From contig JBEKBN010000003.1 of the NCBI GenBank assembly GCA_050015375.1, forward strand, positions 16,127 through 80,126: a stretch of DNA of 64,000 bases, in the 5' to 3' direction. Positions 8,958 through 51,907 of the stretch are shown here, piece by piece (position 1 is the stretch's first letter; each line of letters opens with the position of its first letter). Source of the DNA: Minisyncoccia bacterium. GTDB lineage: Bacteria; Patescibacteriota; Minisyncoccia; 2-02-FULL-40-12; IGHO2-01-FULL-4-A. A program made the translations under genes and the position numbers. A model generated the notes under the pieces. The model had not been told where the DNA came from and did not search any database. It saw only the letters and a program-made list of their open reading frames with translations.

Positions 8958-8958
8958 T

Positions 8959-9030: not shown

Positions 9031-9033
9031 CAC

Positions 9034-11214: not shown

Positions 11215-11302
11215 CCCCGTCATAATAAAGTAGGATTTATTTAGAACTTTAGTGTTAAAGTGTGTTTAGATTTAAAGAAAACTAGAGGGTAAAATAAGTC
11301 CA

Positions 11303-33522: not shown

Positions 33523-33933
33523 ATGGTCATCAAAAAAATATCCGTTTTCGGCAATCCGGACCTGAAATCGGATTCTTTACCCCTTGGAATTTTGCCGCGA
33601 CTCCAGAAAAAATTTCCGGAAATCGAATTTTTGGTTGAAGATCCGAATGAGTTGAATTTACCGGCGTCCGATACATGGATAATTGTTGACACCGTGGCCG
33701 GCATAAAACAAGTTCAACTGCTCGCCCCCGAAAATATCAAATCCTTCGCGAAAAGCCGGGTCTCAATGCATGATTTTGATTTGAAAACCCATCTGTTCTG
33801 GATAAAAAAAATAAAGAAGAATTTAAAAATAAAGATCATCGGTATTCCGCCGATGATCTCGGAAAAGCTAGCGCTCAAAGAAGCGTCCAATATCATTGCC
33901 ACTTTATTTCCAGAAAATGGGCGGCGCAACTGA
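33523..33933 (+). CDS. hydrogenase maturation protease (HycI/HyaD-like)
   Basis: VFGNPDLKSDSLPLGILP...WIIVDTVAG...SMHDFDL...IIGIPP. Confidence 0.6.
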   Translation: MVIKKISVFGNPDLKSDSLPLGILPRLQKKFPEIEFLVEDPNELNLPASDTWIIVDTVAGIKQVQLLAPENIKSFAKSRVSMHDFDLKTHLFWIKKIKKNLKIKIIGIPPMISEKLALKEASNIIATLFPENGRRN

Positions 33934-35212
33934 TGCAGGGATCATAAGCTCGGATCAATTTCTCGATCTCATGCTGGATCTCGCCTTTTAACTCGCCGAA
34001 GTTTTTAACGGAGGTGGCTTTTAGGTTTTCATTAATCATTGATTCAACCAGCCGGGCGATATCCTCCTCGATGTTCAACTGATTTTGGCCCGTCGGGACG
34101 ATGATGGCGCCATCTTTGACGATACCGTCCGCGCCGACGACGACTTTGTGGTAGAGCGTGCCCCGCGGCGCTTCAATGACACCAACGCCGATACCGGCGG
34201 CGATCGGTTTAGTCACGATTGGTTCATTGACAAATTTATTTGTTCTTAAAATATCTAAAGCGTCGTCAATGGAATGCAGGATCTCGATCGCTTGAGCGAG
34301 ATTATTCAAATAAATATCGGTTGATGGGAAAAGATCAAGCAACGCGCCGAGAGTTTCTTTTGTTTTCGGATTCAACAGATCCTTCGCCAGATTCATGCGG
34401 GCCAACGCGCCGACCATATAAGAATCGCCTTCGTGTTTGTAGGCCGAGGCCTGGGAGTAGGGAAGAACAACGCGCTCAAGATAGGACGCGTAGTTTTCTT
34501 CACTGATCTCTTCGCCGTCGCTGTTCTTAATAACACCATTCAAAAAGCCATACCTTTCCGGAACCAGAGCCATGAAGCCCGTCTTGCGGTCGAAATGCCA
34601 GGGGGCATTTTTGAAAATATCGATCAGCCGCAAAACCGCCGGCCGGATCTCCTCCAATTTTTTGATGGCACCGTCAATTCCGGCTTGATCCGGAAAATGA
34701 GTGAAACCACCAATGGTCGGATAGGGCGCGTGAACCGAACGACCGGCGATCAGCATTGAGAGAAAATTACCGGCGGCTTTGATGTCAAAAGCGTCGTGAA
34801 GGATCTGATGTTCGGTTTCGATATTTTCGTCAAAATCAAGGAACGAATCTTTGTTATAGAGGTCGGGCATCACGAACAAATATAGATGCAAAGCGTGATC
34901 GCGGATCATCAAACCGTACATGGTCAGCGTCCTCAACAAAACCGTCTGGGATGACGGCGTGATGCCCAGCGCTTTCTCGCAGGCCTCAATGGAGACCATG
35001 ATGTGGGCGTTCGAACAGGTGCCACAAATCCGCGATAACAACTGAGGCAGGGCGGCAATGGGTTTGCCTTTCATGGCTTCGGTGTAGAACCTTTTATATT
35101 CGCTGATGATGAATTCAACTTTCTCGACTTTGCCGTCGTTGATTTTCACGTTCAAAGACGCCTCGCCCTCGATCTTGGTCAACGATTCGATTGTGATGTC
35201 GGTTGTGTGCAT
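33893..35212 (-). CDS. [NiFe]-hydrogenase large subunit (group 3-like, 439 aa)
   Basis: N-terminal RICGTCSNAH and C-terminal DPCISCAAH nickel-binding motifs. Confidence 0.85.
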   Translation of the reverse strand: MHTTDITIESLTKIEGEASLNVKINDGKVEKVEFIISEYKRFYTEAMKGKPIAALPQLLSRICGTCSNAHIMVSIEACEKALGITPSSQTVLLRTLTMYGLMIRDHALHLYLFVMPDLYNKDSFLDFDENIETEHQILHDAFDIKAAGNFLSMLIAGRSVHAPYPTIGGFTHFPDQAGIDGAIKKLEEIRPAVLRLIDIFKNAPWHFDRKTGFMALVPERYGFLNGVIKNSDGEEISEENYASYLERVVLPYSQASAYKHEGDSYMVGALARMNLAKDLLNPKTKETLGALLDLFPSTDIYLNNLAQAIEILHSIDDALDILRTNKFVNEPIVTKPIAAGIGVGVIEAPRGTLYHKVVVGADGIVKDGAIIVPTGQNQLNIEEDIARLVESMINENLKATSVKNFGELKGEIQHEIEKLIRAYDPCISCAAHFLEIKWQ

Positions 35213-35692
35213 TTATTTTCTTAATTCGGTTATCAACGCGGTGGCTTTATTAACAAAATCCTCCGGGTCCATTGGACATCCCGGAACTTCGGCATCAACT
35301 TTGACAATGTCCGAGACCTTCAGAACTTTCGGCAGTGCGGCGAATTGATCCAAAAACGGCTGGATGCTTTGTTTTTGTTCGACGTTGAAAAAATTCCTTT
35401 GGCCTGACGGCATTCCGACTACGGCGCAGGCGCCGACGGCGACAAGTTTTTTCGATAGGTCGCGGATCTGTTTAAGTTTGTCGATTTGTTTTTGGGAGGC
35501 GATAGAACCTTCAATGAAAGCGATGTCGAACGGTTCCATTGTATTTTTGGTTTTCAAGGCCCGGAAATTCTTAAATTCCAAAATTTTGCTCCATTCTAAC
35601 CAATGGTCGTTCAAAAGCTCAGTCATCACGATCGTGTTGTCTTCGCAGCAGGAAAATGTGAACCAAGCGCATTTTAGTTTTTGGTCGGCCAT
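35213..35692 (-). CDS. [NiFe]-hydrogenase small subunit (group 3-type, 159 aa)
   Basis: FSCCEDNT, GACAVVG and PGCPM Cys motifs of the proximal FeS cluster. Abuts the large subunit gene. Confidence 0.75.
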   Translation of the reverse strand: MADQKLKCAWFTFSCCEDNTIVMTELLNDHWLEWSKILEFKNFRALKTKNTMEPFDIAFIEGSIASQKQIDKLKQIRDLSKKLVAVGACAVVGMPSGQRNFFNVEQKQSIQPFLDQFAALPKVLKVSDIVKVDAEVPGCPMDPEDFVNKATALITELRK

Positions 35693-35702
35693 AATTTTGT
35701 TT

Positions 35703-35872
35703 GACGGATGATACCTCCTATCACCACTTGAATCCCCAGCGAGGATTCTACGTTCTCTCGAAGTTTGTGGATTCTGGCGAGAGAAAAAATGATTATTGAA
35801 ATATTATATCATTTTTTCTCTCGCCAGACCGTGCAATCCACAACTTCGAGAGTGCTAGGAAGTATCATCCGT
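35703..35872. repeat. intergenic imperfect-palindrome element, copy 1 (family with conserved CCCAGCGAG and GACCGTGCAATCCACAA bulges)
   Basis: Arms gacggatgatac/gtatcatccgtc. ~90% identical to copy 2, with compensatory stem changes. Confidence 0.8.
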
Positions 35873-36669
35873 CAAGCCCTATCGTTATTTGCAAATCTAG
35901 TACTCATTCTAGTATATTTTTCCAAATATTTCACTTGACGATTTGTTAATATCTCGCAGGGCTGGTCCCAGTGGATCGAAATCATGTCTCCTGGCTTCAC
36001 CTCTTCCATAAAATCGTCATGCAATTTCCGGTGAATGATTTTGTCATATTCTGACCCGAAAGTAAAACCGGCAGGTTCAGAAAAAACCAGTGACTGAGTT
36101 TTTACGGTTAGCGCCGGCCCGTCAATTTTGATGATTTTTCCCCAGCTAACTCGGCAATGGTCGACATCGTCATAAGTTTTCAGTTCCATGAAATCCTGTT
36201 TTTTCTTCCAAATGTTATAAACATGAAAAGTGTGGTGCATTCTTGCCCCCACACCAAACAAGGATTGTTTGAACCCTGCGCTTGAAGCGCTTATCCTTGT
36301 TTGGTGTGGGGGTGAACCCCCTAGTTTATCTCTTAATATTTTAAATTCCTTTGGGCTTAATTTTTTATCAACTTGTGTCTCGATCAAGTGTTCATAAAAA
36401 TTTTTTTTGCCGATATTTTCCAGAAGTTCATTGCCCAGCCAGTATGCCTCAACAACTTTGTCGTCAAAGGGGTCTTTGATCTTATTGGCTTCGGCGATCT
36501 TTTGTAAATACGGATACATGGTTTTGAATTGTTTTAATAATAAAACCAATCCCTTGTCGGGACTTTGTTCGGTGATGTAACTCAAAACTTCTTTATTCGC
36601 TTCCGGCCCGCAAAGATGCAACCGGTTGGGTCCGAAAGCATAGCGGACGCAGCGCTGGAGGCCGTCCAT
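35872..36669 (-). CDS. hypothetical protein with an in-frame palindromic insertion
   Basis: 265-aa ORF. The 36246-36312 palindrome encodes ...GSPPHQTRISASSAGFKQSLFGVG... Confidence 0.4.
   Translation of the reverse strand: MDGLQRCVRYAFGPNRLHLCGPEANKEVLSYITEQSPDKGLVLLLKQFKTMYPYLQKIAEANKIKDPFDDKVVEAYWLGNELLENIGKKNFYEHLIETQVDKKLSPKEFKILRDKLGGSPPHQTRISASSAGFKQSLFGVGARMHHTFHVYNIWKKKQDFMELKTYDDVDHCRVSWGKIIKIDGPALTVKTQSLVFSEPAGFTFGSEYDKIIHRKLHDDFMEEVKPGDMISIHWDQPCEILTNRQVKYLEKYTRMSTRFANNDRA
36246..36312. repeat. GC-rich perfect inverted repeat (20-bp arms cccccacaccaaacaaggat / atccttgtttggtgtggggg) inside a CDS
   Basis: Arms are exact reverse complements. The spacer contains gcgcttgaagcgc. Confidence 0.8.
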
Positions 36670-37965
36670 TTATGTTTTTGGTAAAAGGGTTTTTAAATCA
36701 AAATTGGGATTAGCCAAATCCGGTTCCAAGCCGATGACTTTGGTGTCTTTTTCAATCAATTTTGATATAGTGGTCAATTCGTCCATGCCATTGATGGCCG
36801 TGGCGCCCACAAGTTCGCCGTACTGGATCAAGAGGCGAACATGGCTTTTTTCGATCGGCTCATCTCGTTCGACAATGATCCGATCGGGCTTAATCCCAAC
36901 GTCACCGACAAAAGCGATATTAATACCAAAGCCGGAAGTATTGTAGGAAGAGACGAGTTTGAATGGAATTTTCTTGCCGGCCATGTTCAAACCGGCGGTT
37001 TTGCCCTGGACTTGGGCATTGACCCAATTGCCCAACTGAACTTTTTCTTCCAAAATCACGTCGCTGTATTCGCTGGAGTCACCGGCCGTCCAGACATCAG
37101 GCAGATTGGTTTCCAAATATTCATTGGCCAGAATTCCGCGATTGACCTCAAGTCCGGAATTTTTCAGCCAGTCCATCTGGCAGAAGTTGCCGATGCCGAT
37201 AATGATCAGATCGCAGGGGATAGTCGTGCCATCCTTTAATTTTACATTTTCAACTTTTTCTGTGCCAAGCACCTCGTCCACTTCCGAATTGAGCATAACC
37301 TTCGCTCCACCTTTATCGATCGCTTCCGTAACCATCCGGCCCGAAATCGGGTCTAATATCGGATCCCAGAAATGCGGTTCGCGGATGATCATCGTAACCG
37401 GCAAGCCAAACGTCCTCAAAATATCGCACATTTCAAAACCAATGAAACCTCCGCCGACAATGACGGCGCTCTTGGTTGTTTTCAAACCTTCTTTTATTTC
37501 TTTGTAATCATCAATCGTCCGCAAAGAAAAAACACCGGCCTTGTCGGCGCCTTTGACTGGCCATTTCCGGGGTGTGCTACCCAAAGCCAAAAGCAGTTTT
37601 TCATACTGGATCTGCTGACTTGCCCCGTTAAAAATCTGATTCGCTTGCGAATCAGTGGCTTCATTTCTAATGGGGCCGTCATTGAGCGTGATGGTTTTGG
37701 TTTTCGGATCAAGCGCGGTCGCAACCTTGCCGCCTAAAAAAACGATGCCTTGTTGCTGATACCATTCCGGCGTTTTCAAAAATGCTTTTTCGGAACCGAT
37801 CTTATCTAAAAAATAATTCGGTTTGGAAAGCATGACCTTGGAATATAAAACATAATTTTCGTCATTGACGATGGCGATGCTTCCGGCCGGGTCAGTGGTC
37901 TTGATGCTTTCCGCGGCAGAAGTGCCGGCCACCCCACCCCCGATGATTAAATATTTGAAGTTCAT
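36670..37965 (-). CDS. FAD-dependent pyridine nucleotide-disulfide oxidoreductase (NADH oxidase / ferredoxin-NAD(P) reductase-like)
   Basis: N-terminal IIGGGVAGTSAAE, a second Rossmann VIVGGGFIGFEMCD, TAGD. Confidence 0.75.
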   Translation of the reverse strand: MNFKYLIIGGGVAGTSAAESIKTTDPAGSIAIVNDENYVLYSKVMLSKPNYFLDKIGSEKAFLKTPEWYQQQGIVFLGGKVATALDPKTKTITLNDGPIRNEATDSQANQIFNGASQQIQYEKLLLALGSTPRKWPVKGADKAGVFSLRTIDDYKEIKEGLKTTKSAVIVGGGFIGFEMCDILRTFGLPVTMIIREPHFWDPILDPISGRMVTEAIDKGGAKVMLNSEVDEVLGTEKVENVKLKDGTTIPCDLIIIGIGNFCQMDWLKNSGLEVNRGILANEYLETNLPDVWTAGDSSEYSDVILEEKVQLGNWVNAQVQGKTAGLNMAGKKIPFKLVSSYNTSGFGINIAFVGDVGIKPDRIIVERDEPIEKSHVRLLIQYGELVGATAINGMDELTTISKLIEKDTKVIGLEPDLANPNFDLKTLLPKT

Positions 37966-38213
37966 GGAAATATTTGTTTTCCCGTCTTGTCGAAAAGAAT
38001 TATCGCCTGAGTCGGACAGGATTGAGCGGCCATTGTGATAAGCTGGTCGTCAGTCAGGTCGGGATTGATGACAATTACTTTGTGCTCGTCATCCAATTTG
38101 AACATTTCCGGATCAACCGAAACGCACGACGCCACGCCAATGCACAAGTCGCGGTCTATTACTATTTTCCCGATATTCGACCCTTCTTTGTTCCTGACGT
38201 ATTCTATTCGCAT
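37962..38213 (-). CDS. single-cluster ferredoxin (Pyrococcus Fd-like)
   Basis: DRDLCIGVASCVSVDP...AAQSCPTQAI cysteine pattern. 83 aa. 4-nt overlap with the oxidoreductase gene. Confidence 0.6.
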   Translation of the reverse strand: MRIEYVRNKEGSNIGKIVIDRDLCIGVASCVSVDPEMFKLDDEHKVIVINPDLTDDQLITMAAQSCPTQAIILFDKTGKQIFP

Positions 38214-38264
38214 ATATTTTAATTATATAATAATTTTAAAAAAATTTAATGTAAAATTGATCTT

Positions 38265-38813
38265 TTACCAATAAAAAGTCTGCATAACTAATTCAATTTC
38301 TGAATATTTTTTCAATTTATTTACCCATTCCTGCTCCGTCCCAACAGGTACTTCTACACCCACGGTTAATACGGCCTTGATATCCAGTGACATATTACCG
38401 ATTTCCGATACGGCTGTTTCTATAGCTTGCAAAGGCATAGTTGGATTTAATTCACATTCAATCCAAAAAGCAGATGATATTTTGCATTTGCTAACTATAT
38501 TTTTAGTTGATAATTGTTTGATATAATAATTTAAATTCGGTGGCGAGCTGTTAGGAGCATCATCGCTTAATATTTTAAATATGCGGCTATTATAAATTTC
38601 AGATGTAGGTTTGAGGTTATTTTTTGATAAAAATGAAACCATATCATTAATACTAAGGGTTTTTTTGAATTGTATTGTTAATTCTCCATCAACAAGTTTG
38701 TGAACGTTACTGAAATTAGACATTCGCAGTCTCAAAAATATTATGATTCCCACAATGACAACCAGCGAGATAATTATTATAAATATAGGTATTTTTCGTT
38801 TAAAGATAGCCAT
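38265..38813 (-). CDS. membrane-anchored hypothetical protein
   Basis: N-terminal TM helix. 182 aa. Confidence 0.4.
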   Translation of the reverse strand: MAIFKRKIPIFIIIISLVVIVGIIIFLRLRMSNFSNVHKLVDGELTIQFKKTLSINDMVSFLSKNNLKPTSEIYNSRIFKILSDDAPNSSPPNLNYYIKQLSTKNIVSKCKISSAFWIECELNPTMPLQAIETAVSEIGNMSLDIKAVLTVGVEVPVGTEQEWVNKLKKYSEIELVMQTFYW

Positions 38814-38872
38814 TATTTAATTATAAAGCATTTGTTATACTTTTAAAACAACGGCCTGGTCCGGGTTTTTGA

Positions 38873-39526
38873 TTATTTAGAATATTTCTCTGAATAAAAT
38901 CGAATTAGTTCCTCGACTTCTGGGAGACAGGTGGGATTGCCGATGCCGACTTTGGTTCGTTTTTGGACGTCTTCAAGAGTCCGCGCGCCCTCGATGACCG
39001 CCGTTTCGATATCAGCTTCGGTGACTTTGGTTTGGGAGTCGATGACTTTTCCGCCGTCAACGATTATCCGGTCGTATTGGCCGGTTTTTTTAAACCAATC
39101 ATTGACCGCGCCTCTCAACGCCTTGTCGCCAAGGACCGAACAATGTATTTTTCTGTCAGGCAAACCGCCGAGACGCTTGGTTATATCTTGGGCTTTAATG
39201 GCCATGGCCTTATCCAATTTCATTCCGCCTTTTTCGGTGGCCATGACTGATAGCATCGAAGTCGCCGCGATTGCCGAAGCACAACCGAAGGTTCGCCATT
39301 TGAATTTCTTTATCCTTTCGGTTTTGGGGTCGATTTTCAGCCAAATTCTCATGACATCACCGCAAGCCGGCGAACCGATGATACCTTCGGCGTCAAAACC
39401 GGTGGTCTTAGAATCATCAGACAAAAAATTCCGCGGTTTGAAAAAATGTTTGCGGACATTTTTCGAGTAAACCCAGCTTTTGCCGAGGAATTGGTTGATT
39501 ATGTCGGGTTTCTTCACTGAACTCAT
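38873..39526 (-). CDS. NifU/IscU-like Fe-S cluster scaffold protein with C-terminal extension
   Basis: GSPACGDVMRIWLKID...RTFGCASAIAATS IscU Cys motifs. Confidence 0.75.
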   Translation of the reverse strand: MSSVKKPDIINQFLGKSWVYSKNVRKHFFKPRNFLSDDSKTTGFDAEGIIGSPACGDVMRIWLKIDPKTERIKKFKWRTFGCASAIAATSMLSVMATEKGGMKLDKAMAIKAQDITKRLGGLPDRKIHCSVLGDKALRGAVNDWFKKTGQYDRIIVDGGKVIDSQTKVTEADIETAVIEGARTLEDVQKRTKVGIGNPTCLPEVEELIRFYSEKYSK

Positions 39527-39545
39527 GGTAATAAAATAAATAATA

Positions 39546-39695
39546 TCTTCCCATCACCACTTGAATCCCCAGCGAGGATTCTGCGTTCCCTTGAAGATTG
39601 TGGATTCTGTCGAGAGAAAAAATGATTATGAAATATTATATCATTTTTTCTCTCGACAGACCGTGCAATCCACAACTTCAAGGGTGCTGGGAAGA
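39546..39695. repeat. intergenic imperfect-palindrome element, copy 2
   Basis: Same conserved bulges as copy 1. Stem differences are compensatory (tctgtcgagag/ctctcgacaga versus tctggcgagag/ctctcgccaga). Confidence 0.8.
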
Positions 39696-39701
39696 CATTA
39701 T

Positions 39702-41009
39702 TTATTTTTTCGCAAAAAAATGCGGGGTTTGGTCACCGACAAACGCTTTCGGCTGGGAAGTTTTTTCAGAAAAATTAGGATTGAGATTGATGGGCGACAT
39801 TTGGCGGAGTTTTCGGACGACTAACGGCAATTTTTTCAAGACATAATCAACATCGGCAATCGTTGTATATTTTCCGAGAGTGAAACGGACACTACCGTGG
39901 GCGAATTCATAAGGCCGGCCGAGGGCCGTCAAAATATGCGACGGCTCCAGCAATTGGGAATTGCAAGCCGAACCGGTGTTGACGATGATATTTTCTTTAT
40001 CCAGATACAAAACTGCCGCTTCGCCTTCAATGTCTAAAATGGAAACATTCAAAAAATTCGGCAGGCGATTTGTCGGATGGCCGTTCAAAATGACTTTCTG
40101 AATTTTGGAGAAAATACCCATGGTCAATCGGTCACGAAGTTTGGCAACTCGGGCGCACTCGGAATCTTTTTCATTGTGAACGAGCCACAGCGCCTCGCCA
40201 AAGCCGACAATACCGGGAACATTTTCAGTGCCGGAACGTACTCCGCTTTGCTGACCGCCGCCGAAAATTATTGGCCGGATCACCGTTCCTCTCCTTATAT
40301 ATAAACCGCCGATGCCCTTGGGTCCGCAAATCTTGTGAGCCGAAAGAGTCAACAAGTCAACGCCCAGTTTTTGAACATCCAGATCAAGATAACCGGCGAT
40401 CTGCGAAGCATCGGTATGAAAATATGGAATTCGTGATTCATGATTCATGATTCGTGATTCTCTGGTAGTTTTTACTAGTTTGGCGATCGGTTGGATCGTG
40501 CCGGTTTCATTATCGGCTGAAGTTATTGAGATCAAAATCGTCTTTTCATCGATCAATTTTGCCAGATCTTCCGGGTAAATTAACCCATCGGGTCTAACCT
40601 TAACTTCGACAATTTCAAAACCTTCTCTGGCAAGCTGTTCCGCGGCGGCAATGATGCCTTTATGCTCAATGTTGGAAATAATTATTTTGTTGCCATATTT
40701 TTTGTTGGCGCGGGCAGTTCCCAGAATCGCCAAATTATCAGCTTCGGTCGCCGAACCGGTGAAAACGAATTCACTTGCCCCCACACTCAAGGATTGAGTG
40801 TGGGGGTGAACCCGGCAATTCAAAACCGCTGAAATTTTATCAAGCGAATCATTGATGGCAATCTTTGAACGGTGGCCGAGAGCGTCAAGGTTGGAAGGAT
40901 TGCCGAAACTCTCGCTGAAGAACGGCATCATCAATTTCAAAACCTCCCGCCTGACCGGCGTCGTCGCGGCGCAGTCGAAATAATGGATGGATTGTCCTTT
41001 TCCCTTCAT
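39702..41009 (-). CDS. cysteine desulfurase (NifS/IscS class) with two short in-frame insertions
   Basis: PLP-Lys motif SAHKICGPKGIGGLYIRRG, class V aminotransferase fold. Insertions: the palindrome 40778-40806 (encoding HPHTQSLSVGAS) and the heptamer repeat 40433-40460 (encoding ESRIMNHESRI). Confidence 0.85.
   Translation of the reverse strand: MKGKGQSIHYFDCAATTPVRREVLKLMMPFFSESFGNPSNLDALGHRSKIAINDSLDKISAVLNCRVHPHTQSLSVGASEFVFTGSATEADNLAILGTARANKKYGNKIIISNIEHKGIIAAAEQLAREGFEIVEVKVRPDGLIYPEDLAKLIDEKTILISITSADNETGTIQPIAKLVKTTRESRIMNHESRIPYFHTDASQIAGYLDLDVQKLGVDLLTLSAHKICGPKGIGGLYIRRGTVIRPIIFGGGQQSGVRSGTENVPGIVGFGEALWLVHNEKDSECARVAKLRDRLTMGIFSKIQKVILNGHPTNRLPNFLNVSILDIEGEAAVLYLDKENIIVNTGSACNSQLLEPSHILTALGRPYEFAHGSVRFTLGKYTTIADVDYVLKKLPLVVRKLRQMSPINLNPNFSEKTSQPKAFVGDQTPHFFAKK
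40433..40460. repeat. 4 x 7-nt tandem repeat RTGATTC inside the cysteine desulfurase CDS
   Basis: gtgattc atgattc atgattc gtgattc. Confidence 0.8.
40778..40806. repeat. 29-nt GC-rich perfect palindrome cccccacactcaa-gga-ttgagtgtggggg inside the cysteine desulfurase CDS
   Basis: 13-bp exact arms. Confidence 0.85.
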
Positions 41010-41050
41010 ATGTCATATAATATATCAGTAAATCAAAGTTATTCAATATA

Positions 41051-42262
41051 ATGGAAAGATTTCCGAATTTCGAAAATTCTCCCAGTAAAGAAACACCCGA
41101 ACAAAAGAACAAGAGATATGCAGGGGGCCAAATAACGGAATCAGAGATTTTTGAGTATCAAAAAAACCCGGACAGTACTCTTTTTGAACACGAGCTGTCA
41201 AAAAAAATGGCATCTGGCGCGGAATACAAAATCAAGTTTCAGGTTAAGAGCCTTACAAAAAACTCGCTTGAAAAAACACTAGAGGGCGTTAGTGATTCGT
41301 GGGACGATGTATCGTTTGAGAACCTAAAGGAAACCCTGAAGCTTTATTTTGAACAAAAAGAATCAGGGATTCCCGGTCTTTTGAACGCGGAGTACTACAT
41401 TGCGGTTGACGGGGATGACATGCCAATAGCGATGACCGGTCTTTATTCTGTCGACATCCAAGGCACATCAGGATTCGCAACAAGGAACGAGCTTGATCCA
41501 AAAAAACATAATATGATTTTAGGCCTCGGCTGGTTCTCGGTCAGTAAAAAAATTGAAAGCCCGGGAATGGGCAAATATCTGCTTGATTGGACCGAAAACT
41601 TAGCGCGAACAAGAGGTGCCAATTTCATGGAGATCGAAACAGATGATTGGGATAATTCAAAAATGGCCGTGGCGCTCTACAGAAGATCGGGTTATCAGGA
41701 GGGCCATCCAGTGAAAGACTATTATGGGGCAGGCCGCGATCTAAATGCCTATTATTTTGATGCCGCAGGAGAACTGGAAAGCGAGCCAGTGGCGCCATCT
41801 GAAATAACCCGACAAGATGTTGGCGATTTGCTTAAAATTGCGGCCAAGATTAATTCCCCGGATCGGGTCGAGGAGTTTAAGGTTTGTCTTGAGCTTTTCT
41901 TGAAACAGCAGGAGGATAAAAGTGCTATTCTTAGTGGAAAATCGCTGGTTCTCCGAGACGCATCGGGCCATCCTGAGAGTTTCGCTATTTATTCGGACGG
42001 CATATATGATAATGAGCTTTTGATCTTTTGGGAGGGCGCCGATCCCGAGAGAGATGGCGCCCGAGAAAGATTGATTTCCAAACTGAAAGAAACCGCAAAA
42101 AGTTGCGACCAAAATGTCGTAGTCATTATGAAGGACAAGGAAGACCCCAAACTTATCAATCTTGGTTTTACATCGGCTGGCCAGGGAATCCCGGGGGTTT
42201 TTGGCAAAGATGATCCAACAAAATTACTCCATTTCATAAAACCATTAAATCCTGTAAAATAA
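41051..42262 (+). CDS. GNAT-fold-containing hypothetical protein
   Basis: LGLGWFSVSKKIESPGMGKYLL motif A-like. 403 aa. Confidence 0.4.
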   Translation: MERFPNFENSPSKETPEQKNKRYAGGQITESEIFEYQKNPDSTLFEHELSKKMASGAEYKIKFQVKSLTKNSLEKTLEGVSDSWDDVSFENLKETLKLYFEQKESGIPGLLNAEYYIAVDGDDMPIAMTGLYSVDIQGTSGFATRNELDPKKHNMILGLGWFSVSKKIESPGMGKYLLDWTENLARTRGANFMEIETDDWDNSKMAVALYRRSGYQEGHPVKDYYGAGRDLNAYYFDAAGELESEPVAPSEITRQDVGDLLKIAAKINSPDRVEEFKVCLELFLKQQEDKSAILSGKSLVLRDASGHPESFAIYSDGIYDNELLIFWEGADPERDGARERLISKLKETAKSCDQNVVVIMKDKEDPKLINLGFTSAGQGIPGVFGKDDPTKLLHFIKPLNPVK

Positions 42263-42267
42263 ATACC

Positions 42268-43338
42268 ATGGAAAAGATGCCAACAATTGGAAGCCGAATG
42301 GAAGAGCAAGCATGCAAACATGGCGTTGTGAAGGGCGAATTATGCGATGCATGCGAATTGGAAAAACAACCATCTTGGAACACGATCGAAAATCTCAGAA
42401 AGAAGAGTCATTTCAAGCGTTCGAACGAAGTTTTCCCAAACTGTTTCATTGAGATTGAAAACAAAAAGTTTAAGATTGAAATAATTGAAAACGGCAAAGA
42501 CCCATCGTTAAGCGATGTCCAGGCATTGTTTGAAAATACTTTTGGAAAAGAAGAGGTTGATCCGGAAGAAATTTTGCGTTCAGCGGTTGACGGCATAACT
42601 CCCTGGGAGACGGAAGACACAAAGTACAGAGTAGTTACTATCCGCGATGACGAGGGAAAACTGGTTACGACTGTTGCCGGCGCATCGCTGGATCTATTTG
42701 ATGAAAAAGGTGAACCAACTGGCGAATGTGCCTACTATGTCGGTTACGCCGTAACAGATCCCAATACTAGACAGGGCGGACTGGCTCGAGAGGCCTACAT
42801 TTCTGCTCTCTTGGATGTTGCCAGAGAAGCTCAGAAAAAAAATAAAGTTCTGAAGTTTGCCGTTGGCGAGTGTACTTACACTTCAGAAAAATTTTGGAAC
42901 AATGTCGGATGGAAGCGGGTTTATGCCCAAACAGGCGATAAGCGGGAATATACTGAGCTGAAATATATTCAACCCGCCCTGGAATTCGATGAGGATACCG
43001 GCGAGATTGCTGAAGGATCAGGCGAAGCACCCGAACACCTTATGATTGATGCTTTCGGACCCAAAACTCCCGGGAAAGAGGATGTCATGAGAGCGTATGA
43101 ATCGCTAATCTATTTTTGTAATGATTGGCCGCGCGAAGCCTTCAATAATGATCGAGCCGAAAAAAAGAAGACGGAATATCTGAACGGAATTAAAACAAAT
43201 TTTAAAGATTTTATGGATTCTAATGGCCAGCTGATCTATCTTGATGCCGATAACCGTGAAAAAGCGGTTAAGGAAGGTGTGGCCGTTATCGGATACACCG
43301 AAGCTGACCGCGGACAAGCCGGCGAAGAAGATTTCTAA
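42268..43338 (+). CDS. GNAT-fold-containing hypothetical protein (paralog-like to the preceding gene)
   Basis: TRQGGLAREAYISALLDVA motif A-like. 356 aa. Confidence 0.4.
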   Translation: MEKMPTIGSRMEEQACKHGVVKGELCDACELEKQPSWNTIENLRKKSHFKRSNEVFPNCFIEIENKKFKIEIIENGKDPSLSDVQALFENTFGKEEVDPEEILRSAVDGITPWETEDTKYRVVTIRDDEGKLVTTVAGASLDLFDEKGEPTGECAYYVGYAVTDPNTRQGGLAREAYISALLDVAREAQKKNKVLKFAVGECTYTSEKFWNNVGWKRVYAQTGDKREYTELKYIQPALEFDEDTGEIAEGSGEAPEHLMIDAFGPKTPGKEDVMRAYESLIYFCNDWPREAFNNDRAEKKKTEYLNGIKTNFKDFMDSNGQLIYLDADNREKAVKEGVAVIGYTEADRGQAGEEDF

Positions 43339-43568
43339 AATATTCTAAACAAAAATCCGTGTTCGAGCACGGATTTTTGTTTAGACGCGGTATCCTTAAT
43401 CATAACTTCAAGATAATATTATAACTTCCGTAAAGTTATCCACTTTTTTGTTAAAAAATATTTTTTAAGTGGTATAATTAAAGTATAAAATAATTCCTAA
43501 TAAATATTTTTCTAAACAAAAATTAATTTCTTGAAAAATCGGCAAAGAATTTTTTAAGAAAATATAGA

Positions 43569-44792
43569 TTGAAAAAATTTGACTATTTAATTCTCGGTGC
43601 GAGCGGAATGCAAGGCAGAATAGTCGCCCGAGATCTTCTAGAAAAAGGCAATGAGGTCTTATTGACCGATATCTACAAGGAAAACTCGCGGAAAAATTTG
43701 AAAATATTTCCAAGAGCAGCTTTTAGGTATCTGGATGTCCGGGAATTTCGCCGAATGATAGATCTGATCCGTGAGTCCGGAACAGACATCGTCATCAATT
43801 GCGCCGAATCGGACTGGAATCTTAGTGTTCACCGAGCTTGTCTGATCGCGGGCGTTCACGTGGTTGATATGGATTCCGACGTTGCCACGACCGAAAAACA
43901 ACTGGCCCTGGACGGCCAATTCAAGAAAAAAGGACTGACGGCGATCACCGGTTGCGGTTCAACTCCGGGCATCAACAATCTGATGCTGAATCACGCCGCC
44001 CAGTTTTTTGATACTCTGGAATCTGTCAATGCCGGTTTTGTCTGGGATTCAAACATGGATATTTTTGTCGCTCCGTTCTCGATCCCGAGCATCGTTTGGG
44101 AATTTACCCATCCGGCGACCGTCATTGAAAACGGAATTGTCCGCTTCAAGAAACCGCTGTCCGAAACGATCACGGTTGATCTGAGGGTGGTCGGCCGTCA
44201 GACCGGCTATCTTGTGGAACACGCCGAGGTCGCCACCTTCAATCATTATTTCAAAAACAAAGGTCTGAAAAATATTCATTTTTACGCCGGCTTTCCGAAA
44301 TACTCCGCCGATGTTTTTGAAAAATTAATTTATCTTGGATTGGCGAAAAGTGAAAAGATTGCCGTTGACGGAGGATTAAAAGTTTCTCCTCTTGATCTGG
44401 TGACCCAAGTCATCAAACGAATTGACTATCCGGAAAATTATTTTGAAAAAGAAAATCTTTGGGTGGAAATCATTGGCAAAAAAGACGGCCAGCCAAAAAA
44501 AATTCTCATGGAATGCATTGTGCCGCCGCTGGAGGGTTGGGAAGACGCCGGTTGCAATATTGATACCGGTTTTCCCGCTTCCATCATCGCCCAAATGATA
44601 AAAGACGGGCGGATCTCGGAACGGGGCAGTTTTTCGCCCGAGGCCGGCATCGTGCCTGAAGAAGATTTTTTCCGCGAACTTCGCTTGAAAGGCATGACCG
44701 TTTATCGGGGCGGCATCGCTATAAATTTGTTGAAGAACGAGATCACCATGCCCAAGCGAGCAAAGACCGAGCGAGTGGAGACGTATATTTAG
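43569..44792 (+). CDS. saccharopine dehydrogenase-like NAD(P)-binding oxidoreductase
   Basis: N-terminal Rossmann LILGASGMQGRIVARDL. 407 aa. Confidence 0.6.
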   Translation: MKKFDYLILGASGMQGRIVARDLLEKGNEVLLTDIYKENSRKNLKIFPRAAFRYLDVREFRRMIDLIRESGTDIVINCAESDWNLSVHRACLIAGVHVVDMDSDVATTEKQLALDGQFKKKGLTAITGCGSTPGINNLMLNHAAQFFDTLESVNAGFVWDSNMDIFVAPFSIPSIVWEFTHPATVIENGIVRFKKPLSETITVDLRVVGRQTGYLVEHAEVATFNHYFKNKGLKNIHFYAGFPKYSADVFEKLIYLGLAKSEKIAVDGGLKVSPLDLVTQVIKRIDYPENYFEKENLWVEIIGKKDGQPKKILMECIVPPLEGWEDAGCNIDTGFPASIIAQMIKDGRISERGSFSPEAGIVPEEDFFRELRLKGMTVYRGGIAINLLKNEITMPKRAKTERVETYI

Positions 44793-44793
44793 A

Positions 44794-45138
44794 ATGGATA
44801 AGACAATAGAAATGATTACCTACGACGATTTCGCCAAAGTTGAACTCAAAATCGCCAAAGTATCGGAAGCCGAGAGAATTGAAGGTTCAGAAAAACTATT
44901 GAAATTGCAAATTGACATCGGCGAACCGGAGAAGCGCCAGATCATTGCCGGCATCGGCAAGATTTATTCGCCGGAAGAACTTATCGGCAAAGAAATCGTC
45001 ATTGTCGCCAACTTGGAACCCAAGTCATTGATGGGTTTGGAAAGCAGTGGTATGCTTTTGGCGGCGACAGACGGCGAAGGCCGACCGATATTGCTTACGC
45101 CTGACAAAGAAATCGCGCCCGGAAGCAAGATCAAGTGA
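44794..45138 (+). CDS. tRNA-binding domain protein (CsaA/Trbp111/MetRS C-terminal-like)
   Basis: FAKVELKIAKV...LQIDIGEPEKRQIIAGI...VANLEPKSLMGLESSGMLLAA. Confidence 0.7.
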   Translation: MDKTIEMITYDDFAKVELKIAKVSEAERIEGSEKLLKLQIDIGEPEKRQIIAGIGKIYSPEELIGKEIVIVANLEPKSLMGLESSGMLLAATDGEGRPILLTPDKEIAPGSKIK

Positions 45139-45213
45139 TTAAAAAATATCGGAAAAATTAAAGTTTCAAAAACCTTGTTGTTCTTGAAACGTTGAAATTT
45201 ATCCGAAAGTATC

Positions 45214-45462
45214 ATGCAAGGTTATCCTAATTTTGTCGGTGTTCCCGGATACGGCTGGAATGCGCCGGCGTGGGTTGGCTGGCTTGTCGCGGTCGTTGTC
45301 ATCTGGTCGATAATTTGGAAGGGGATCGCTTTGTGGAAAGCGGCCGAAAAAAGAAGCAAGCCGTGGTTCATCATTTTACTTTTGGTCAACACCATCGGTA
45401 TTTTGGATATAATCTACATTTACGCCGTCAGCAAGAAATCGAAAGGGCAGGCGCAAGTTTAG
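45214..45462 (+). CDS. small membrane protein
   Basis: 82 aa, two TM helices. Confidence 0.35.
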   Translation: MQGYPNFVGVPGYGWNAPAWVGWLVAVVVIWSIIWKGIALWKAAEKRSKPWFIILLLVNTIGILDIIYIYAVSKKSKGQAQV

Positions 45463-45504
45463 CCCTCGCGCCATTTCCGAAATTCCAATTTTAATCTTCA
45501 GCTA

Positions 45505-45666
45505 GCTTCGGTGATCGCCTCTCTGATCACCACTCCAAAACCCAGCGAGTTTTGTTCGTTCCGTCAAAATTGTGGATTCAGCTTTTGGTTTGGCAGAACA
45601 TTATACCAAAAGCTGACCGTGCAATCACACAATTTTGACGGTGCTCCGAGAGGCGATCACCTCGCT
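45505..45666. repeat. intergenic imperfect-palindrome element, copy 3 (diverged)
   Basis: Retains CCCAGCGAG on the 5' side and GACCGTGCAATCACACA on the 3' side. Its own complementary stems: ggtgatcgcctctc/gagaggcgatcacc and ccgtcaaaattgtg/cacaattttgacgg. Confidence 0.65.
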
Positions 45667-45806
45667 TAATCGCCGGAATATTATTGAAGTTCGGAAATAG
45701 CTCAAATTGATTGTCAGGTACTTATCTGCGCGGTCGCTCGAAGAGGGTTGGCTTGCTCACCATCTCCCAATTTGTAAAATCCGCCAGCGGATGATTAAAT
45801 TGAGGT

Positions 45807-46478
45807 ATGAACATAAACGAAATATATCTGAAAATTGTTGCTCTGAACAAGGGTAAAATCACCGTTGCAATTGATGGCTATATTGGTTCGGGGAAAACAT
45901 TTATCGCGAATCAAATCATCAAAGATCATGAAAACGAGATTGTCTTGATTCACGGAGATGATTTTCTAGTTTCCGGCGCAGGAAGGAAAACCGCACTTGA
46001 AAAATATGGTCCGGATTTGGCGATGTCGGTATATGGAAATCGCTGGCAAGAAATTAGGCGTTTAGTGAAAGCATTCAAAAGAGGAGAAAATGAATTTAAA
46101 TTCAAGGGATTCGATCATGAGTCGGGTGAATGTAATATTGAGATGAGTTATAATTTCACGGGCAAGAAAATTTTAATTGCCGAAGGCGTATTTTTAATTC
46201 ACCCAAAAACAATTACCGATATTTGGGATTATAAAATTTATGTAAAAGGGGATATCGAGAAAATAGACAAACGGAGAATTGAAAGAGAAAAAGCCCGCTG
46301 GGGTGAAAAATATTTCCCCGAAACTCGCCCCGATTCCCACATGGGCATGGCCGTCCGCGCCTACAAAAAATTTATTGAGGAATACAATCCAGAACATCTC
46401 GCTGATTTGGTAATAGATAATTCCAATAAATTATGTCTTCGCGTAATTAATAAACTATTTGAAAACAAGAGTTTTTGA
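45807..46478 (+). CDS. P-loop kinase (uridine/cytidine kinase / PRK-like)
   Basis: Walker A IDGYIGSGKTFIA. Confidence 0.5.
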   Translation: MNINEIYLKIVALNKGKITVAIDGYIGSGKTFIANQIIKDHENEIVLIHGDDFLVSGAGRKTALEKYGPDLAMSVYGNRWQEIRRLVKAFKRGENEFKFKGFDHESGECNIEMSYNFTGKKILIAEGVFLIHPKTITDIWDYKIYVKGDIEKIDKRRIEREKARWGEKYFPETRPDSHMGMAVRAYKKFIEEYNPEHLADLVIDNSNKLCLRVINKLFENKSF

Positions 46479-46592
46479 GGGCTTGACGGCTGGTATTGAG
46501 GTTTGGTATAATGGAGGCATAGGTAAATTGAGCATCGTGCTTGCGAGCCATGAGTAGCGGAAGTTCTTTTAACTAGTTTACGGAGGAAAACT

Positions 46593-47030
46593 ATGCCGGA
46601 TTTGGAGAAAGAAGATTTGGATGCCTGGCTGGAAGCCATGAACGAAATGACAATTACTCGAGTGGAGATGTTGGGATTTTCGTCGAGTGCCATGACTCTT
46701 TCTCGAGCTGGTTTTTGCAGGATGGTGTCGAAAAACACCAAGTTTTGCGATGACCTCGAACTGCGAACACGAGTCCTCGAGTTGCTCGCCGATGAGGATG
46801 TCGATGTCAGAGCGGCAGCTTGTCAGACCGTTCTAGATCTAAATTTGGATGCTTCCGGTTACTGGGTGAGAATTCACAAGGACGAGACGCGAGACTGCAT
46901 CCGACCCAGTCGCATGTGGCAATTGGTATATAATCCTACCCTCACAGCCGAAGAAGAGAGGGCGCATATCAAATCATGTCGCTATTGCAAACGGTCTCTA
47001 AAATTCATGGAGGACGAGAAAACCACTTAA
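46593..47030 (+). CDS. hypothetical protein
   Basis: 145-aa ORF, locally GC-richer. Confidence 0.4.
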   Translation: MPDLEKEDLDAWLEAMNEMTITRVEMLGFSSSAMTLSRAGFCRMVSKNTKFCDDLELRTRVLELLADEDVDVRAAACQTVLDLNLDASGYWVRIHKDETRDCIRPSRMWQLVYNPTLTAEEERAHIKSCRYCKRSLKFMEDEKTT

Positions 47031-47094
47031 GTCTGACAGTTTTTGTCCCCGTTGATCTGTGATTCAAAGGAGAACCCAAGGGGAGCAGAACCTC

Positions 47095-47125
47095 AGCCGA
47101 TCTAGCAAGGGTCGGCTTTTTGTTT
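47095..47125 (+). terminator. rho-independent terminator
   Basis: agccga-tctagcaagg-gtcggct followed by ttttgttt. Confidence 0.6.
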
Positions 47126-47412
47126 GGAAGAAAATAATCGTCCGAAACGGATTAGTATTGAATCTTGAAACCTCAATAATTAATCAGCAACTAAGCGAGG
47201 CGATCGCGCCTCCAAGCAGTTCCAAAATTGAGAGCCGGCAAGGTCGGCTCAAGTGGCATAATGGTTGCCCGAAGGGCAACCCACCACGAGCCGCGTCTCC
47301 AATTTTGAAACAACGAGGCGAATCGCTGGTGAGCCGAGTGGTGACCAGAGGTACAATTGCCGAAGCTGGCAGAAATTAAAAATGGAATTTCAGAAATGAG
47401 ACGAGGCGAGCA

Positions 47413-48729
47413 TTATTTGCTGGTGACCAACTCATTGACCGCGTTGACCAGTGCGGGATAATTGAAATAAGCCAAAAGTTGTTTTTGCCAGTCCTTGTCA
47501 TTGATGTTGACGTCCGGATCCACGCCTCGGCCTTCGATGGGTAGGCCGTCGTCACGAAGAGTGATGCTGTTAACCAGAAACACTGAATATTTGTCGGTGT
47601 CGGTGAGCTGATTTTGAAGCGGCATATCCTGCTCGACCGTGCCCCAGCCCTTGGTCGTCGTGCCGACCAAAACCCCGACATGATATTTTTTCAATGTCGC
47701 CGCCATGACTTCGGCCGACGACTGGTCCTGATTGTTAATCAAGATGACGACTTTTTTGTATCTAACCAAACTGTCGAACCAGCCATACTGGGTTTTATAC
47801 GGCGTAGTGTTGCCCTGATGAAAAAAATCATAAGCATAATTATTCGGCCCGATGAACGGCCCCAAAAAATATTGCAAGATATCAATGTCTCCGCCGATGT
47901 TGCCCCGCAAATCAAAGATGAGCGAAGTCGGTCCGTTCTTTTCGTTCGGGTCTATCTTGTCGGCGGCTTTTTTCAATTCATCGAACGATTGCGGAGAAAA
48001 TTTGGATAATTTTATGTAATAAATATCGGGGCTGATCAATTTTGAAGTAACCGTTGGCTCGACGCCGGTCGCATCATAAATTATCTTGCTGTCCGTCGTT
48101 GAAAGAGCGTCATAAGCGCGCTGAACCGTCGCTAACTGCTGTTGGGCTGCTGCTGATTTATCGGTTTTCAATTCCTGTTCTTTTTTGGTGTAAGCGGTTT
48201 TGATGTCTTGGGTGGTGGCGTCCTTTGTTACGCCCAAAGCCGAATACAGGTCAGTATTCGGGTCTTTGTTTTGAACCGTGTTGGTCAGAGCTTGGGTCTG
48301 CTTCTCATTGTATAGCCGGCTCCGGCCGAATGGTTTCAAATTTGCCAAAACAATATCGGCTAACTGGGTCACAAACCCGACTTTTTTATCGTCTGGTTTA
48401 TCTTTGATGATTTGCTCGATAAGATTGCCGACATCGTCACGGGACTTTGGATCGAAAGAGGCCGAAGCGGTTACGATCTTTTGAGCGCCAAGTTTGTATA
48501 GATTCGCAAGGTCAGAATCCGAAATTTTGTCCCAGTAATTTTGTTTTATCTTATCCCAGACCTCAAAAGAAAAAGCCAGATATTTATCAGGTGTAGGCGT
48601 CGGTGAAACAGCGACCGCCTGATGGCGGAAGAATTTTTTACTGAGAGAAGAAGATGAATAGGTCAAACCCCCGACAATTACTACGCCGATCAACAATGCT
48701 AAAAATATGCTTTTCTTTGATAACTTCAT
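47413..48729 (-). CDS. S41 family C-terminal processing peptidase
   Basis: LIFDLRGNIGGDID, SAEVMAATLKKYHVGVLVGTTTKGWG. N-terminal TM anchor. Confidence 0.8.
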   Translation of the reverse strand: MKLSKKSIFLALLIGVVIVGGLTYSSSSLSKKFFRHQAVAVSPTPTPDKYLAFSFEVWDKIKQNYWDKISDSDLANLYKLGAQKIVTASASFDPKSRDDVGNLIEQIIKDKPDDKKVGFVTQLADIVLANLKPFGRSRLYNEKQTQALTNTVQNKDPNTDLYSALGVTKDATTQDIKTAYTKKEQELKTDKSAAAQQQLATVQRAYDALSTTDSKIIYDATGVEPTVTSKLISPDIYYIKLSKFSPQSFDELKKAADKIDPNEKNGPTSLIFDLRGNIGGDIDILQYFLGPFIGPNNYAYDFFHQGNTTPYKTQYGWFDSLVRYKKVVILINNQDQSSAEVMAATLKKYHVGVLVGTTTKGWGTVEQDMPLQNQLTDTDKYSVFLVNSITLRDDGLPIEGRGVDPDVNINDKDWQKQLLAYFNYPALVNAVNELVTSK

Positions 48730-51851: not shown

Positions 51852-51907
51852 GAATTATGAATCACGAATAACAATCCCGTGATTCATGATTCTTTTTTCA
51901 TGATTCA
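51843..51907. repeat. cluster of RTGATTC heptamers in both orientations (intergenic/5' region)
   Basis: gaatcacgaattatgaatcacgaat ... cgtgattcatgattc ... catgattc. Same heptamer as inside the cysteine desulfurase gene. Confidence 0.7.

Follow-up and report, generated by a model that had tools for sequence, protein, structure and literature searches.

A multi-copy palindromic repeat with a conserved single-strand fold at the nifS–nifU junction of a Minisyncoccia bacterium and across Patescibacteria

Candidate phyla radiation (CPR) bacteria have genomes that are among the smallest and most streamlined of all bacteria, and few repeats are expected in them. Here we analysed 64,000 nucleotides (nt) of DNA from a Minisyncoccia bacterium (GenBank assembly GCA_050015375.1, contig JBEKBN010000003.1, positions 16,127 to 80,126 of the forward strand; the whole stretch is hereafter referred to as the window) and found that the junction of a nifS-like with a nifU-like gene holds a long palindromic element, a non-coding interspersed repeat of which the window contains four copies. 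The family is nearly restricted to Minisyncoccota/Patescibacteria (CPR) and is apparently undescribed. Its stems stay almost perfectly Watson–Crick paired while the stem sequence turns over, its unpaired motifs are conserved far above the neutral expectation, and its copies are inserted at gene junctions and can invert in place. We see about an even chance that it is a structured repeat, similar to the REPINs built from repetitive extragenic palindromic (REP) sequences or to MITEs (miniature inverted-repeat transposable elements), in which the folded single strand is under selection.

The element at the nifS–nifU junction (copy 2) is present where a preliminary description of this DNA had placed it, at 39546–39695, and is larger: an outer stem of 21–26 base pairs (bp; inverted repeat I7) extends the palindrome to 176 nt. 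The sequence folds to −84.9 kcal/mol on the plus strand (z = −13.4 compared with shuffled sequence) and to −91.8 kcal/mol on the minus strand (z = −13.0), and none of 200 shuffles matched the folding energy on either strand. The same description had taken the sequence at 35703 (copy 1) for the same element, and the two do belong together. Their common core (39549–39694 and 35716–35862) is 93–94% identical with a single 1-nt indel, around ten core positions differ, four of these differences being paired double changes, and copy 1 behaves in the same way as copy 2 when compared with shuffles. Copies 1 and 2 agree fully over a 19-nt sequence of the side hairpin, GAATCCCCAGCGAGGATTC, of which the window has two occurrences, compared with 0.02 expected by chance. 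We refer to the strand complementary to GAATCCCCAGCGAGGATTC as written, which is the conserved folding strand, as the R strand; it is the minus strand for copies 1–3 of the window. In two independent Logan short-read assemblies, contigs end inside both copies 1 and 2, in the way that assemblers break at repeats.

The R strand folds as a three-way junction that consists of a closing stem (P1), an arm (P2–P3) and a hairpin (P4). From 5′ to 3′, P1 is followed by a short CACC/GGUG helix, P2, a UGCAYGG bulge, P3 with its apical loop, the returning strands of P3 and P2, the joining segment J2/4, P4, the joining segment J4/1 (which includes GUGGUGA) and the return of P1. P1 is long and specific to each copy, and the apical loop starts with UAUAAU in the subfamily to which copy 2 belongs (subfamily A). 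We aligned 16 subfamily-A copies using MAFFT (alignment A2) and built a covariance model, R1, from this alignment. Double changes occur at 35 of the 53 consensus pairs, and paired cells reach 95.8%, compared with 78.0 ± 0.9% in column shuffles and 33–52% when the partners are slid; none of 500 shuffles attained any of the pairing measures of A2. The invariant unpaired bases are the UGCAYGG bulge, TAnAAT of the apical loop (T69, A70, A72, A73 and T74), the P4 loop C-UCGCU-GG and GUGGUGA. The bulge is also found in subfamilies B, C and D, and the P4 loop has a U.G wobble on the R strand only. A pseudoknot between UGCAY of the bulge and AUGCA in J2/4 was considered and rejected, as the two sites show no covariation.

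R1 finds both copies 1 and 2, matching copy 2 at 39534–39707 of the minus strand with 143 bits (E = 1e-31; 17 bits on the plus strand), and copies 3 and 4 of the window were found by this model. It also finds copies that do not have an exact GAATCCCCAGCGAGGATTC. In the copies found only by the model, the P4 stem takes the forms CAAAAC/GUUUUG, CAUUUC/GAAAUG, GUCCUGC/GCAGGAC and GUUUCC/GGAAAC, with the loop C-UCGCU-GG kept. Because the stem changes by paired substitutions and the loop is kept, P4 is read as a folded hairpin rather than a double-stranded binding site.

Retrieval with GAATCCCCAGCGAGGATTC yielded around 60 copies overall, nearly all of them in metagenome-assembled genomes (MAGs) of Minisyncoccota/Patescibacteria and in metagenomes. 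Among 185,579 species genomes (one per species, GTDB) there were 25 matches, 24 of which were in Patescibacteria/CPR MAGs labelled Yanofskybacteria, Paceibacteria, Spechtbacterales, Minisyncoccia and ‘Saccharibacteria’, with up to 5 exact matches in one MAG; the remaining match was a chance match in a coding region of Acidobacterium. Metagenome contigs contributed 38 loci, a few of which are GC-rich chance matches, and no match was found in the viral contigs searched. Every true match is an intergenic long hairpin of 130–240 nt with the same layout, and at least four subfamilies can be distinguished, the stem sequences of which are almost wholly different. The family is multi-copy and its copies tend to cluster locally. 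The four copies found in this genome are confined to 12 kilobases (kb) of the 73 kb searched, with no copy in the remaining approximately 60 kb, including an extra 9 kb of the contig, and a second copy is present in around 8 of around 40 other 8-kb stretches taken around matches from relatives and metagenomes (loci with L numbers). There was no recurrent neighbouring gene at the copies, the sole cluster being of ABC ATPases. Only tRNAs in the window passed the gathering thresholds of Rfam (4227 families), and at E ≤ 10 the element gave only sub-threshold hairpins of the microRNA-precursor type (14–29 bits, compared with thresholds of 50–171). We found no description of such an element in CPR bacteria in the literature.

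These results bear on the alternative that copy 2 is a chance palindrome or an ordinary intrinsic terminator. A hairpin after a stop codon is what a terminator would look like, but a z score of −13, around 60 homologous copies with covariation, a length of 176 nt with no consistent U-tract and a location between genes that are translationally coupled in relatives lead us to discount this explanation almost entirely. The element is not among the terminator-like sites returned by a scan of positions 35400–47600.

Some copies depart from the common layout. An optional domain of 75–82 nt with two hairpins lies between P4 and P2 in L046 (2839–3061) and L055 (625–853), as well as in L052, and covaries between L046 and L055; L062 (753–873), which is the L055 locus from another sample, is missing both this domain and, through loss, the 3′ half of the element. 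Elements can also enclose small perfect palindromes, as seen in the P4 loop of L005 (1774–1949), in P2 of L009 (4224–4393) and, as an insert of around 90 nt, in L026 (approximately 1540–1750), which suggests that new inverted repeats are frequently created in these genomes. In subfamily C (L031, L032 and L043), a structure that is mutually exclusive with P4 can form by pairing of CCAGCGAG, upstream of P4, with CUCGCUGG in the loop and 3′ strand of P4, and a GAGCG motif occurs around five times per element.

Comparison of gene junctions between relatives shows that copies are gained and lost. Copy 2 separates a nifS-like and a nifU-like gene by 175 nt and, as the preliminary description had it, the two are a same-strand Fe–S pair, both on the minus strand, encoding NifS-like (Aminotran_5) and NifU-like (NifU_N + Fer2_BFD) proteins. 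The nifS stop codon is within the 5′ arm of P1, and the nifU ATG is 6 nt past the 3′ arm (Table 1). We compared this junction in five relatives (NifU 76–84% identical) and found the element in none: the spacer is 22 nt in L067 and 3 nt in L068, the genes overlap in L072 and in the P0004 contig, and L071 has an AT-rich spacer of 100 nt without the element. As the junction is tight or element-free in all five, copy 2 is a lineage-specific insertion at a gene junction. Co-transcription of the region, which had also been proposed, would be a natural expectation, because nifS and nifU overlap or lie 3–22 nt apart in relatives.

At the junction of copy 1, between DUF6390 and hydrogenase genes, the closest relative (L070) is empty, with TAA directly followed by ATG, and the more distant L069 has a complete orthologous element with related arms; from these comparisons, copy 1 appears to be the older, orthologously conserved copy. 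A third junction is empty in L007 (CTC TAG GAGTT ATG) and filled in L009 and L054. The outer 10 nt of the 3′ arm in L054 repeat the end of the upstream gene as it stands in L007, which suggests, from this single case, a duplication of around 10 nt of the gene end together with an inverted copy. The L067 nifS–nifU spacer (AAGACATTATTCATTTTTATAC) is in turn colinear with the 3′ arm of copy 2 and the 6 nt that precede the nifU ATG, and either the outer arm is target-derived or L067 carries a deletion scar. Target-derived outer ends are thus supported by two comparisons, copy 2 with the L067 spacer and L054 with L007. The idea that outer arms are purely inverted copies of the target is only partly right: the arms are the most variable part of the element, those of subfamily A have a common consensus, TTTGGCRGRTAATGCC, which is degenerate and seen only there, and a deletion may have left the L067 spacer as a scar. 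At a different site, L009 was rejected as the empty counterpart of an element in L007; around 290 nt are missing (L009:2440–2620 compared with L007:4300–4620), among them the last part of glyA, the element and the start codon of folD, and the end of glyA is joined to the start of folD, either by a deletion centred on the element or by misassembly.

Once in place, the stems evolve in an unusual way. Hairpins as long as 58 bp are nearly perfectly Watson–Crick in every copy, G.U makes up only 2–3% of paired cells and double changes of the transversion type are common. In addition, the core inverts. L009 and L054 have the element at the same junction, with similar outer arms and opposite core orientation; independent insertions were rejected because the arms are similar, which makes inversion in situ the more parsimonious account. 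Similarly, the apical loop ACTTTGA in L013 and L017 is the reverse complement of TCAAAGT in L020. Template switching between the arms of inverted repeats is known to homogenize arms, to produce multi-base ‘compensatory’ changes, to invert spacers and to expand arms (PMC8604942, PMC8794818, PMC13100816). We favour this process over stepwise RNA compensation, because a stepwise route would leave many intermediates and few G.U pairs are seen. Intrastrand template switching would maintain the complementarity of the arms, invert the core in situ and extend P1 outwards into the flanks.

Conservation of orthologous copies far exceeds that of neutral DNA. Between copy 1 and its ortholog in L069, identity is 86.5% for the element, 73% for the flanking gene (nucleotides) and 49% for four-fold degenerate sites; the corresponding values are 90.5%, 70% and 39% for L013 and L020, and 90.3%, 79% and 44% for L009 and L054. 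The four-fold sites are saturated in all three pairs. Divergence of the orthologs is mostly in P1, and P2, the bulge, P3, P4 and the junction are nearly fixed.

Conservation of this strength at orthologous sites is also what would be expected of a host-functional cis-acting RNA module, that is, a hairpin that is useful once transcribed in operons, with gain and loss secondary. Its roles would include processing of the RNase III type, protection of the upstream cistron from 3′ exonucleases, insulation of cistrons, or juxtaposition of stop and start codons at the hairpin base so that translational coupling is preserved. Further support comes from G.U and tandem G.A pairs that are specific to the R strand, as is typical of RNA, from the covariation of the optional two-hairpin domain, from the location of copies at gene 3′ ends and tight operon junctions, and from the arrangement in copies 1 and 2, L054, L009 and L069, in which pairing within P1 takes in the stop codon of the upstream gene, with 6–8 nt between P1 and the next ATG. 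This stop–start geometry was checked across copies and is not general, and the rarity of G.U (approximately 2–3%) together with the common transversion-type double changes points to copying at the DNA level, not to stepwise RNA compensation. Moreover, only 12 copies have the R strand in the sense direction, compared with 20 in which it is antisense to both neighbours, and most copies would be transcribed as the complement, because the flanking coding DNA is mostly on the other strand. We therefore regard a cis-acting module as possible but rather doubtful.

Several measures distinguish the two strands. Of the transition mismatches in the outer stems, 27 read as G.U on the R strand and 8 on the complement; within A2 the counts are 18 (R) and 8, and purine G.A mismatches number 12 compared with 5 for C.T. 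Subfamilies B and C have recurrent tandem 5′-GA/5′-GA loops, as do copies 3 and 4. The usual mutation bias of the GC-skew type would give the opposite mismatch excess. Judged by the flanks of each copy, the R strand coincides with the C-rich strand in 40 of 49 cases, and in around 31 compared with 5 when copies of the same orientation are counted once per locus and loci of mixed orientation are dropped; after regression on coding balance, the intercept is still −0.029 ± 0.008. In the window, the plus strand is G-rich and copies 1–3 have R on the minus strand. Relative to the R strand, the genes on either side are both antisense in 20 copies and both sense in 12, and they are convergent in 7 and divergent in 4; copies 1 and 2 are among the minority of sense copies. 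Overall, the folded strand tends to be the lagging-strand sequence and antisense to genes.

An orientation bias relative to GC skew is one of the features that a folded single-strand recombination or replication site could explain, whether as an attC-like site, a TIGR-like guide unit, or a hairpin of the priming or single-strand-origin type. The element is an imperfect palindrome with strand-specific extrahelical features, its copies flank blocks of genes (five genes between the direct repeats 1 and 2, and two between the inverted repeats 3 and 4), and TIGR stem-loop arrays are common in CPR bacteria. The folding strand appears not to be on the lagging-strand template, however, and there are no R″/R′ boxes, integrase or cassette-like genes, the flanked genes being housekeeping genes in conserved order; the copies are not in tandem, and have neither a tas gene nor paired spacer loops of 8–12 nt. 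Such a site is, in our judgement, very unlikely.

Taken together, we consider the evenly weighted interpretation given at the outset, a REPIN- or MITE-like structured repeat, to be the best explanation. Under it, the folded single strand could be read by a trans-acting factor that recognizes the surface formed by the conserved loops and bulge, by analogy with the reading of REP/REPIN hairpins by RAYT, and copy 2 may have been copied locally from the older copy 1, 3.8 kb away. Several observations weigh against this interpretation. Consistent direct target-site duplication was absent among 47 copies, as was a conserved terminal inverted repeat among the copies compared, and the most conserved parts are internal, the reverse of a classical MITE. 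No transposase, reverse transcriptase or recombinase recurs beside the copies in the 8-kb loci, and tblastn searches of 0.5 megabases (Mb) of DNA with IS200 TnpA and a RAYT sequence detected no HUH transposase. The folding strand is mostly on the C-rich (lagging-strand-sequence) side, apparently opposite to the prediction from single-strand transposition of the IS200/IS605 type, and the UAnAAU motif is limited to subfamily A. The long persistence of orthologs at 86–90% identity fits an element that benefits the host at least as well as a selfish one, and every effect of copy 2 on nifS–nifU expression is inferred.

As the folding strand of copy 2 is the sense strand, the nifS–nifU transcript should carry a hairpin of around −92 kcal/mol. 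If it is transcribed with the operon, the hairpin would probably be a site of endonucleolytic (double-strand-specific) processing or of segmental mRNA stabilization, and a ribosome that terminates on nifS would open P1 beside the nifU start. The apical loop adds a −10-like sequence, TGATATAAT, which is oriented towards nifU in copy 2 and could serve as an internal promoter for nifU and, via copy 1, for the hydrogenase genes. Read as the function of the whole family, this would make the element a portable promoter or small-RNA unit in which TAnAAT (often TGnTAnAAT) is a −10 that starts an RNA of the 3′ half of the element, including P4, into downstream DNA, giving nifU and the hydrogenase genes promoters of their own here and producing antisense RNAs elsewhere. 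In 16 of 16 subfamily-A copies an invariant TAnAAT stands in an otherwise variable apical loop, TG is present at −15/−14 in the window copies and L069, and copies 1 and 2 and the ortholog in L069 are oriented towards the downstream genes. Three observations weaken the promoter reading. The motif is a feature of subfamily A and is not present in subfamilies B, C or D; no −35 stands at a spacing that could be used (TTGCAY is 13–22 nt away, and a consensus sigma-70 scan does not call the apical TATAAT); and around 28 of 49 copies are directed at a convergent gene, into its 3′ end. The reading would also leave the long conserved hairpin, the bulge and the P4 loop unexplained, and we consider it unlikely.

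Beyond these readings, we tentatively entertain the idea, which we would not call probable, that the family is a functionally new class of structured RNA or single-stranded DNA element of CPR/Minisyncoccota, maintained by selection, with the folded strand as substrate or cofactor of some machinery. The features of such a class would be the three-way junction, the invariant C-UCGCU-GG loop, the UGCAYGG bulge and tandem G.A pairs, in genomes of only around 1 Mb. Candidates for the machinery are a replication-coupled, strand-specific copying or inversion system and an RNA–protein complex.

Table 1 Copies of the palindromic element, parts of copy 2 and adjacent genes in the window
Feature	Position	Strand	Evidence
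Copy 2, full element, 176 nt	39533–39708	−	I7, fold z = −13, R1 match
P1 5′ arm (outer stem) of copy 2; holds the last nifS-like codons and TAA stop (39702–39704)	39688–39708	−	
7-nt asymmetric bulge UGCACGG (family consensus UGCAYGG), P2/P3 boundary of copy 2	39661–39667	−	Invariant columns, alignment A2
TATAAT, 5′ edge of apical loop of copy 2, TGA before (extended −10-like TGATATAAT)	39635–39640	−	TAnAAT invariant in 16/16 subfamily-A copies
P4 side hairpin of copy 2, GAAUCC-UCGCUGG-GGAUUC	39563–39581	−	Loop C-UCGCU-GG conserved family-wide
P1 3′ arm of copy 2; ends 6 nt ahead of nifU-like ATG (39524–39526); colinear with 22-nt L067 nifS–nifU spacer	39533–39553	−	
NifS-like cysteine desulfurase gene, upstream of copy 2	39702–41009	−	Pfam Aminotran_5 (class-V aminotransferase), E = 1e-65
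NifU/IscU-like scaffold gene, downstream of copy 2	38873–39526	−	Pfam NifU_N + Fer2_BFD; 100% identical to NCBI ‘MAG: Minisyncoccia bacterium’ protein
Copy 1, between DUF6390 gene and [NiFe]-hydrogenase small-subunit gene; same orientation as copy 2	35701–35875	−	R1 match
Copy 3, 129 bits; P4 stem CAAAAC/GUUUUG, loop kept; antisense to both adjacent genes	45509–45664	−	R1
Copy 4, 33 bits, degenerate, all four motifs retained	47196–47362	+	R1

Copies 1 and 2 (35701–39708) are direct repeats around five genes, which encode the NifU-like protein, a hypothetical protein, a ferredoxin, an FAD-dependent oxidoreductase and DUF6390. A pair of genes for the large and small subunits of a [NiFe]-hydrogenase is directly downstream of copy 1 (33893–35692) and is linked to the Fe–S assembly, ferredoxin and DUF6390 genes. 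In one relative (L067 and L069), nifS–nifU and the block from ferredoxin to DUF6390 are on different contigs with different neighbours. Copy 4 is an inverted duplicate of copy 3, flanks included; the two are within an inverted duplication of around 280 nt (45430–45730 on the minus strand and 47130–47430 on the plus strand, 79% identical) that takes in around 45 nt upstream and around 55 nt downstream of the hairpin. They bracket a PRK-like gene (45807–46478) and a 145-amino-acid HEAT-like gene (46593–47030), and the 5′ ends of their R strands face inward.

Other repeats and mobile DNA are present in the window. Long perfect palindromes are common in this genome, as two unrelated long hairpins at 19859–19912 and 43344–43385 show; one has arms of 26 bp and a loop of 2 nt, the other a stem of 18 bp and a T-rich tail. 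Inside the nifS-like open reading frame (40429–40461) is a run of GATTCAT/GATTCGT heptamers, with a 90%-complementary partner 11.4 kb away (51838–51872). Five tandem units of 150 nt (73–78% identical, 62678–63577) and repeats of 762–765 nt (60484–61800) are in an apparent very large open reading frame that continues past the window's end. The stretch beside an rpoD-like gene and dnaG (approximately 1–12000 of the window plus 9 kb upstream, L073) is probably an integrated mobile island; it encodes a large serine recombinase, an N6/N4 DNA methyltransferase, a ResIII helicase, a TnsA-like endonuclease domain and small hypothetical proteins, and has no copy of the palindromic element.

In the CPR, several copies per genome, presence in many candidate lineages, 86–90% identity where synonymous sites are saturated and a non-random strand orientation are unexpected, and together they imply a partner as well as selection on a folded single strand. 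The family would also be a clean natural case in which template switching keeps very long stems paired, a process that can mimic RNA covariation. In practice, R1 can be used to annotate these elements, which accounts for breaks in the assemblies of CPR MAGs and flags operon junctions, such as nifS–nifU and the hydrogenase operon, where expression has probably been re-wired.

We compared the element with known systems of structured repeats and hairpins. Integron attC sites were rejected because there are no R″/R′ boxes (RYYYAAC / GTTRRRY) at the base of P1 and because the flanked genes (nifS/nifU, hydrogenase, glyA/folD) are in conserved order. A hammerhead ribozyme was rejected because CUGAUGA is confined to subfamily B, the core positions do not fit and no Rfam ribozyme matched at E ≤ 10; for a ribozyme similar to that of hepatitis delta virus, the string in common, UCCUCGCUGG, was treated as coincidence, with no model match. 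The hammerhead core consists of CUGANGA...GAAA, an A15.1–U16.1 pair and a UH cleavage site, and that of the delta-like ribozymes is a nested double pseudoknot with the catalytic C. TIGR stem-loop units are approximately 36–54 nt in length, occur in tandem beside a tas gene and carry two 8–12-nt spacers between box C and box D (PMC12045711; bioRxiv 10.64898/2026.09.09.750476). Like them, our elements have CPR hosts and hairpins with variable palindromic stems and short conserved motifs, and subfamily B has UGAUGA and CUGA around P4; unlike them, the elements are solitary, kilobases apart, 130–240 nt in length and dispersed among housekeeping genes, with one single-sided 7-nt bulge, and no Nop-domain gene was found among the neighbours of copies. 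A further comparison is with palindrome-associated transposable elements (PATEs) derived from IS200/IS605 and with single-strand transposition (PMC6006769). They are similar in having no target-site duplication or terminal inverted repeats, a strand-specific subterminal hairpin and an orientation that correlates with the replication strand. The CPR element differs in having one conserved hairpin instead of similar left- and right-end hairpins, in being palindromic throughout and in its apparently opposite polarity, with the folding strand mostly on the C-rich strand (40/49), and neither TnpA nor TnpB was seen.

Inverted repeats and RNA hairpins maintained by template switching show arm homogenization, one-step multi-nucleotide changes, spacer inversion and outward arm expansion, all of which are seen in the CPR element. 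Template switching is, however, a mutational mechanism and not an element family, and the conservation of unpaired motifs, the spread to multiple copies and the strand polarity are left unexplained by it. ERIC, Correia/NEMIS, RUP and BOX elements are imperfect palindromes of 100–200 nt that occur at gene junctions in either orientation and are co-transcribed, creating RNase III or RNase E sites, promoters or stabilizers. Conserved inverted repeats at the termini and target duplications, of TA or other sequence, mark these elements, which are found in single genera or families. The CPR element, by contrast, is most variable at its termini, has no duplication and has a core that is conserved across many candidate lineages of a phylum.

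REP and REPIN sequences with their RAYT transposase are known from Enterobacteria and Pseudomonas (PMC3116915, PMC8049555, PMC3733652). A REPIN consists of two inverted REPs, whereas the CPR element has one P4 and one UGCAYGG bulge, on one strand only; there is no conserved GTAG/CGTC tag, the bases before P4 being GCAG, GTAG, GAAG, CGAG or GCTG; no RAYT gene was found in the 0.5 Mb of DNA searched; and the host phylum is another. In common with REP/REPIN sequences, the element is non-coding, intergenic and multi-copy, forms long hairpins, has no target-site duplication, is long-lived by vertical inheritance and is conserved between species, and in both the recognition unit would be a folded single-strand hairpin with fixed unpaired bases. 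Although it lacks the features by which membership of either group is recognized, the element appears to work most like REP/REPIN sequences and transcribed palindromic MITEs such as ERIC and Correia.

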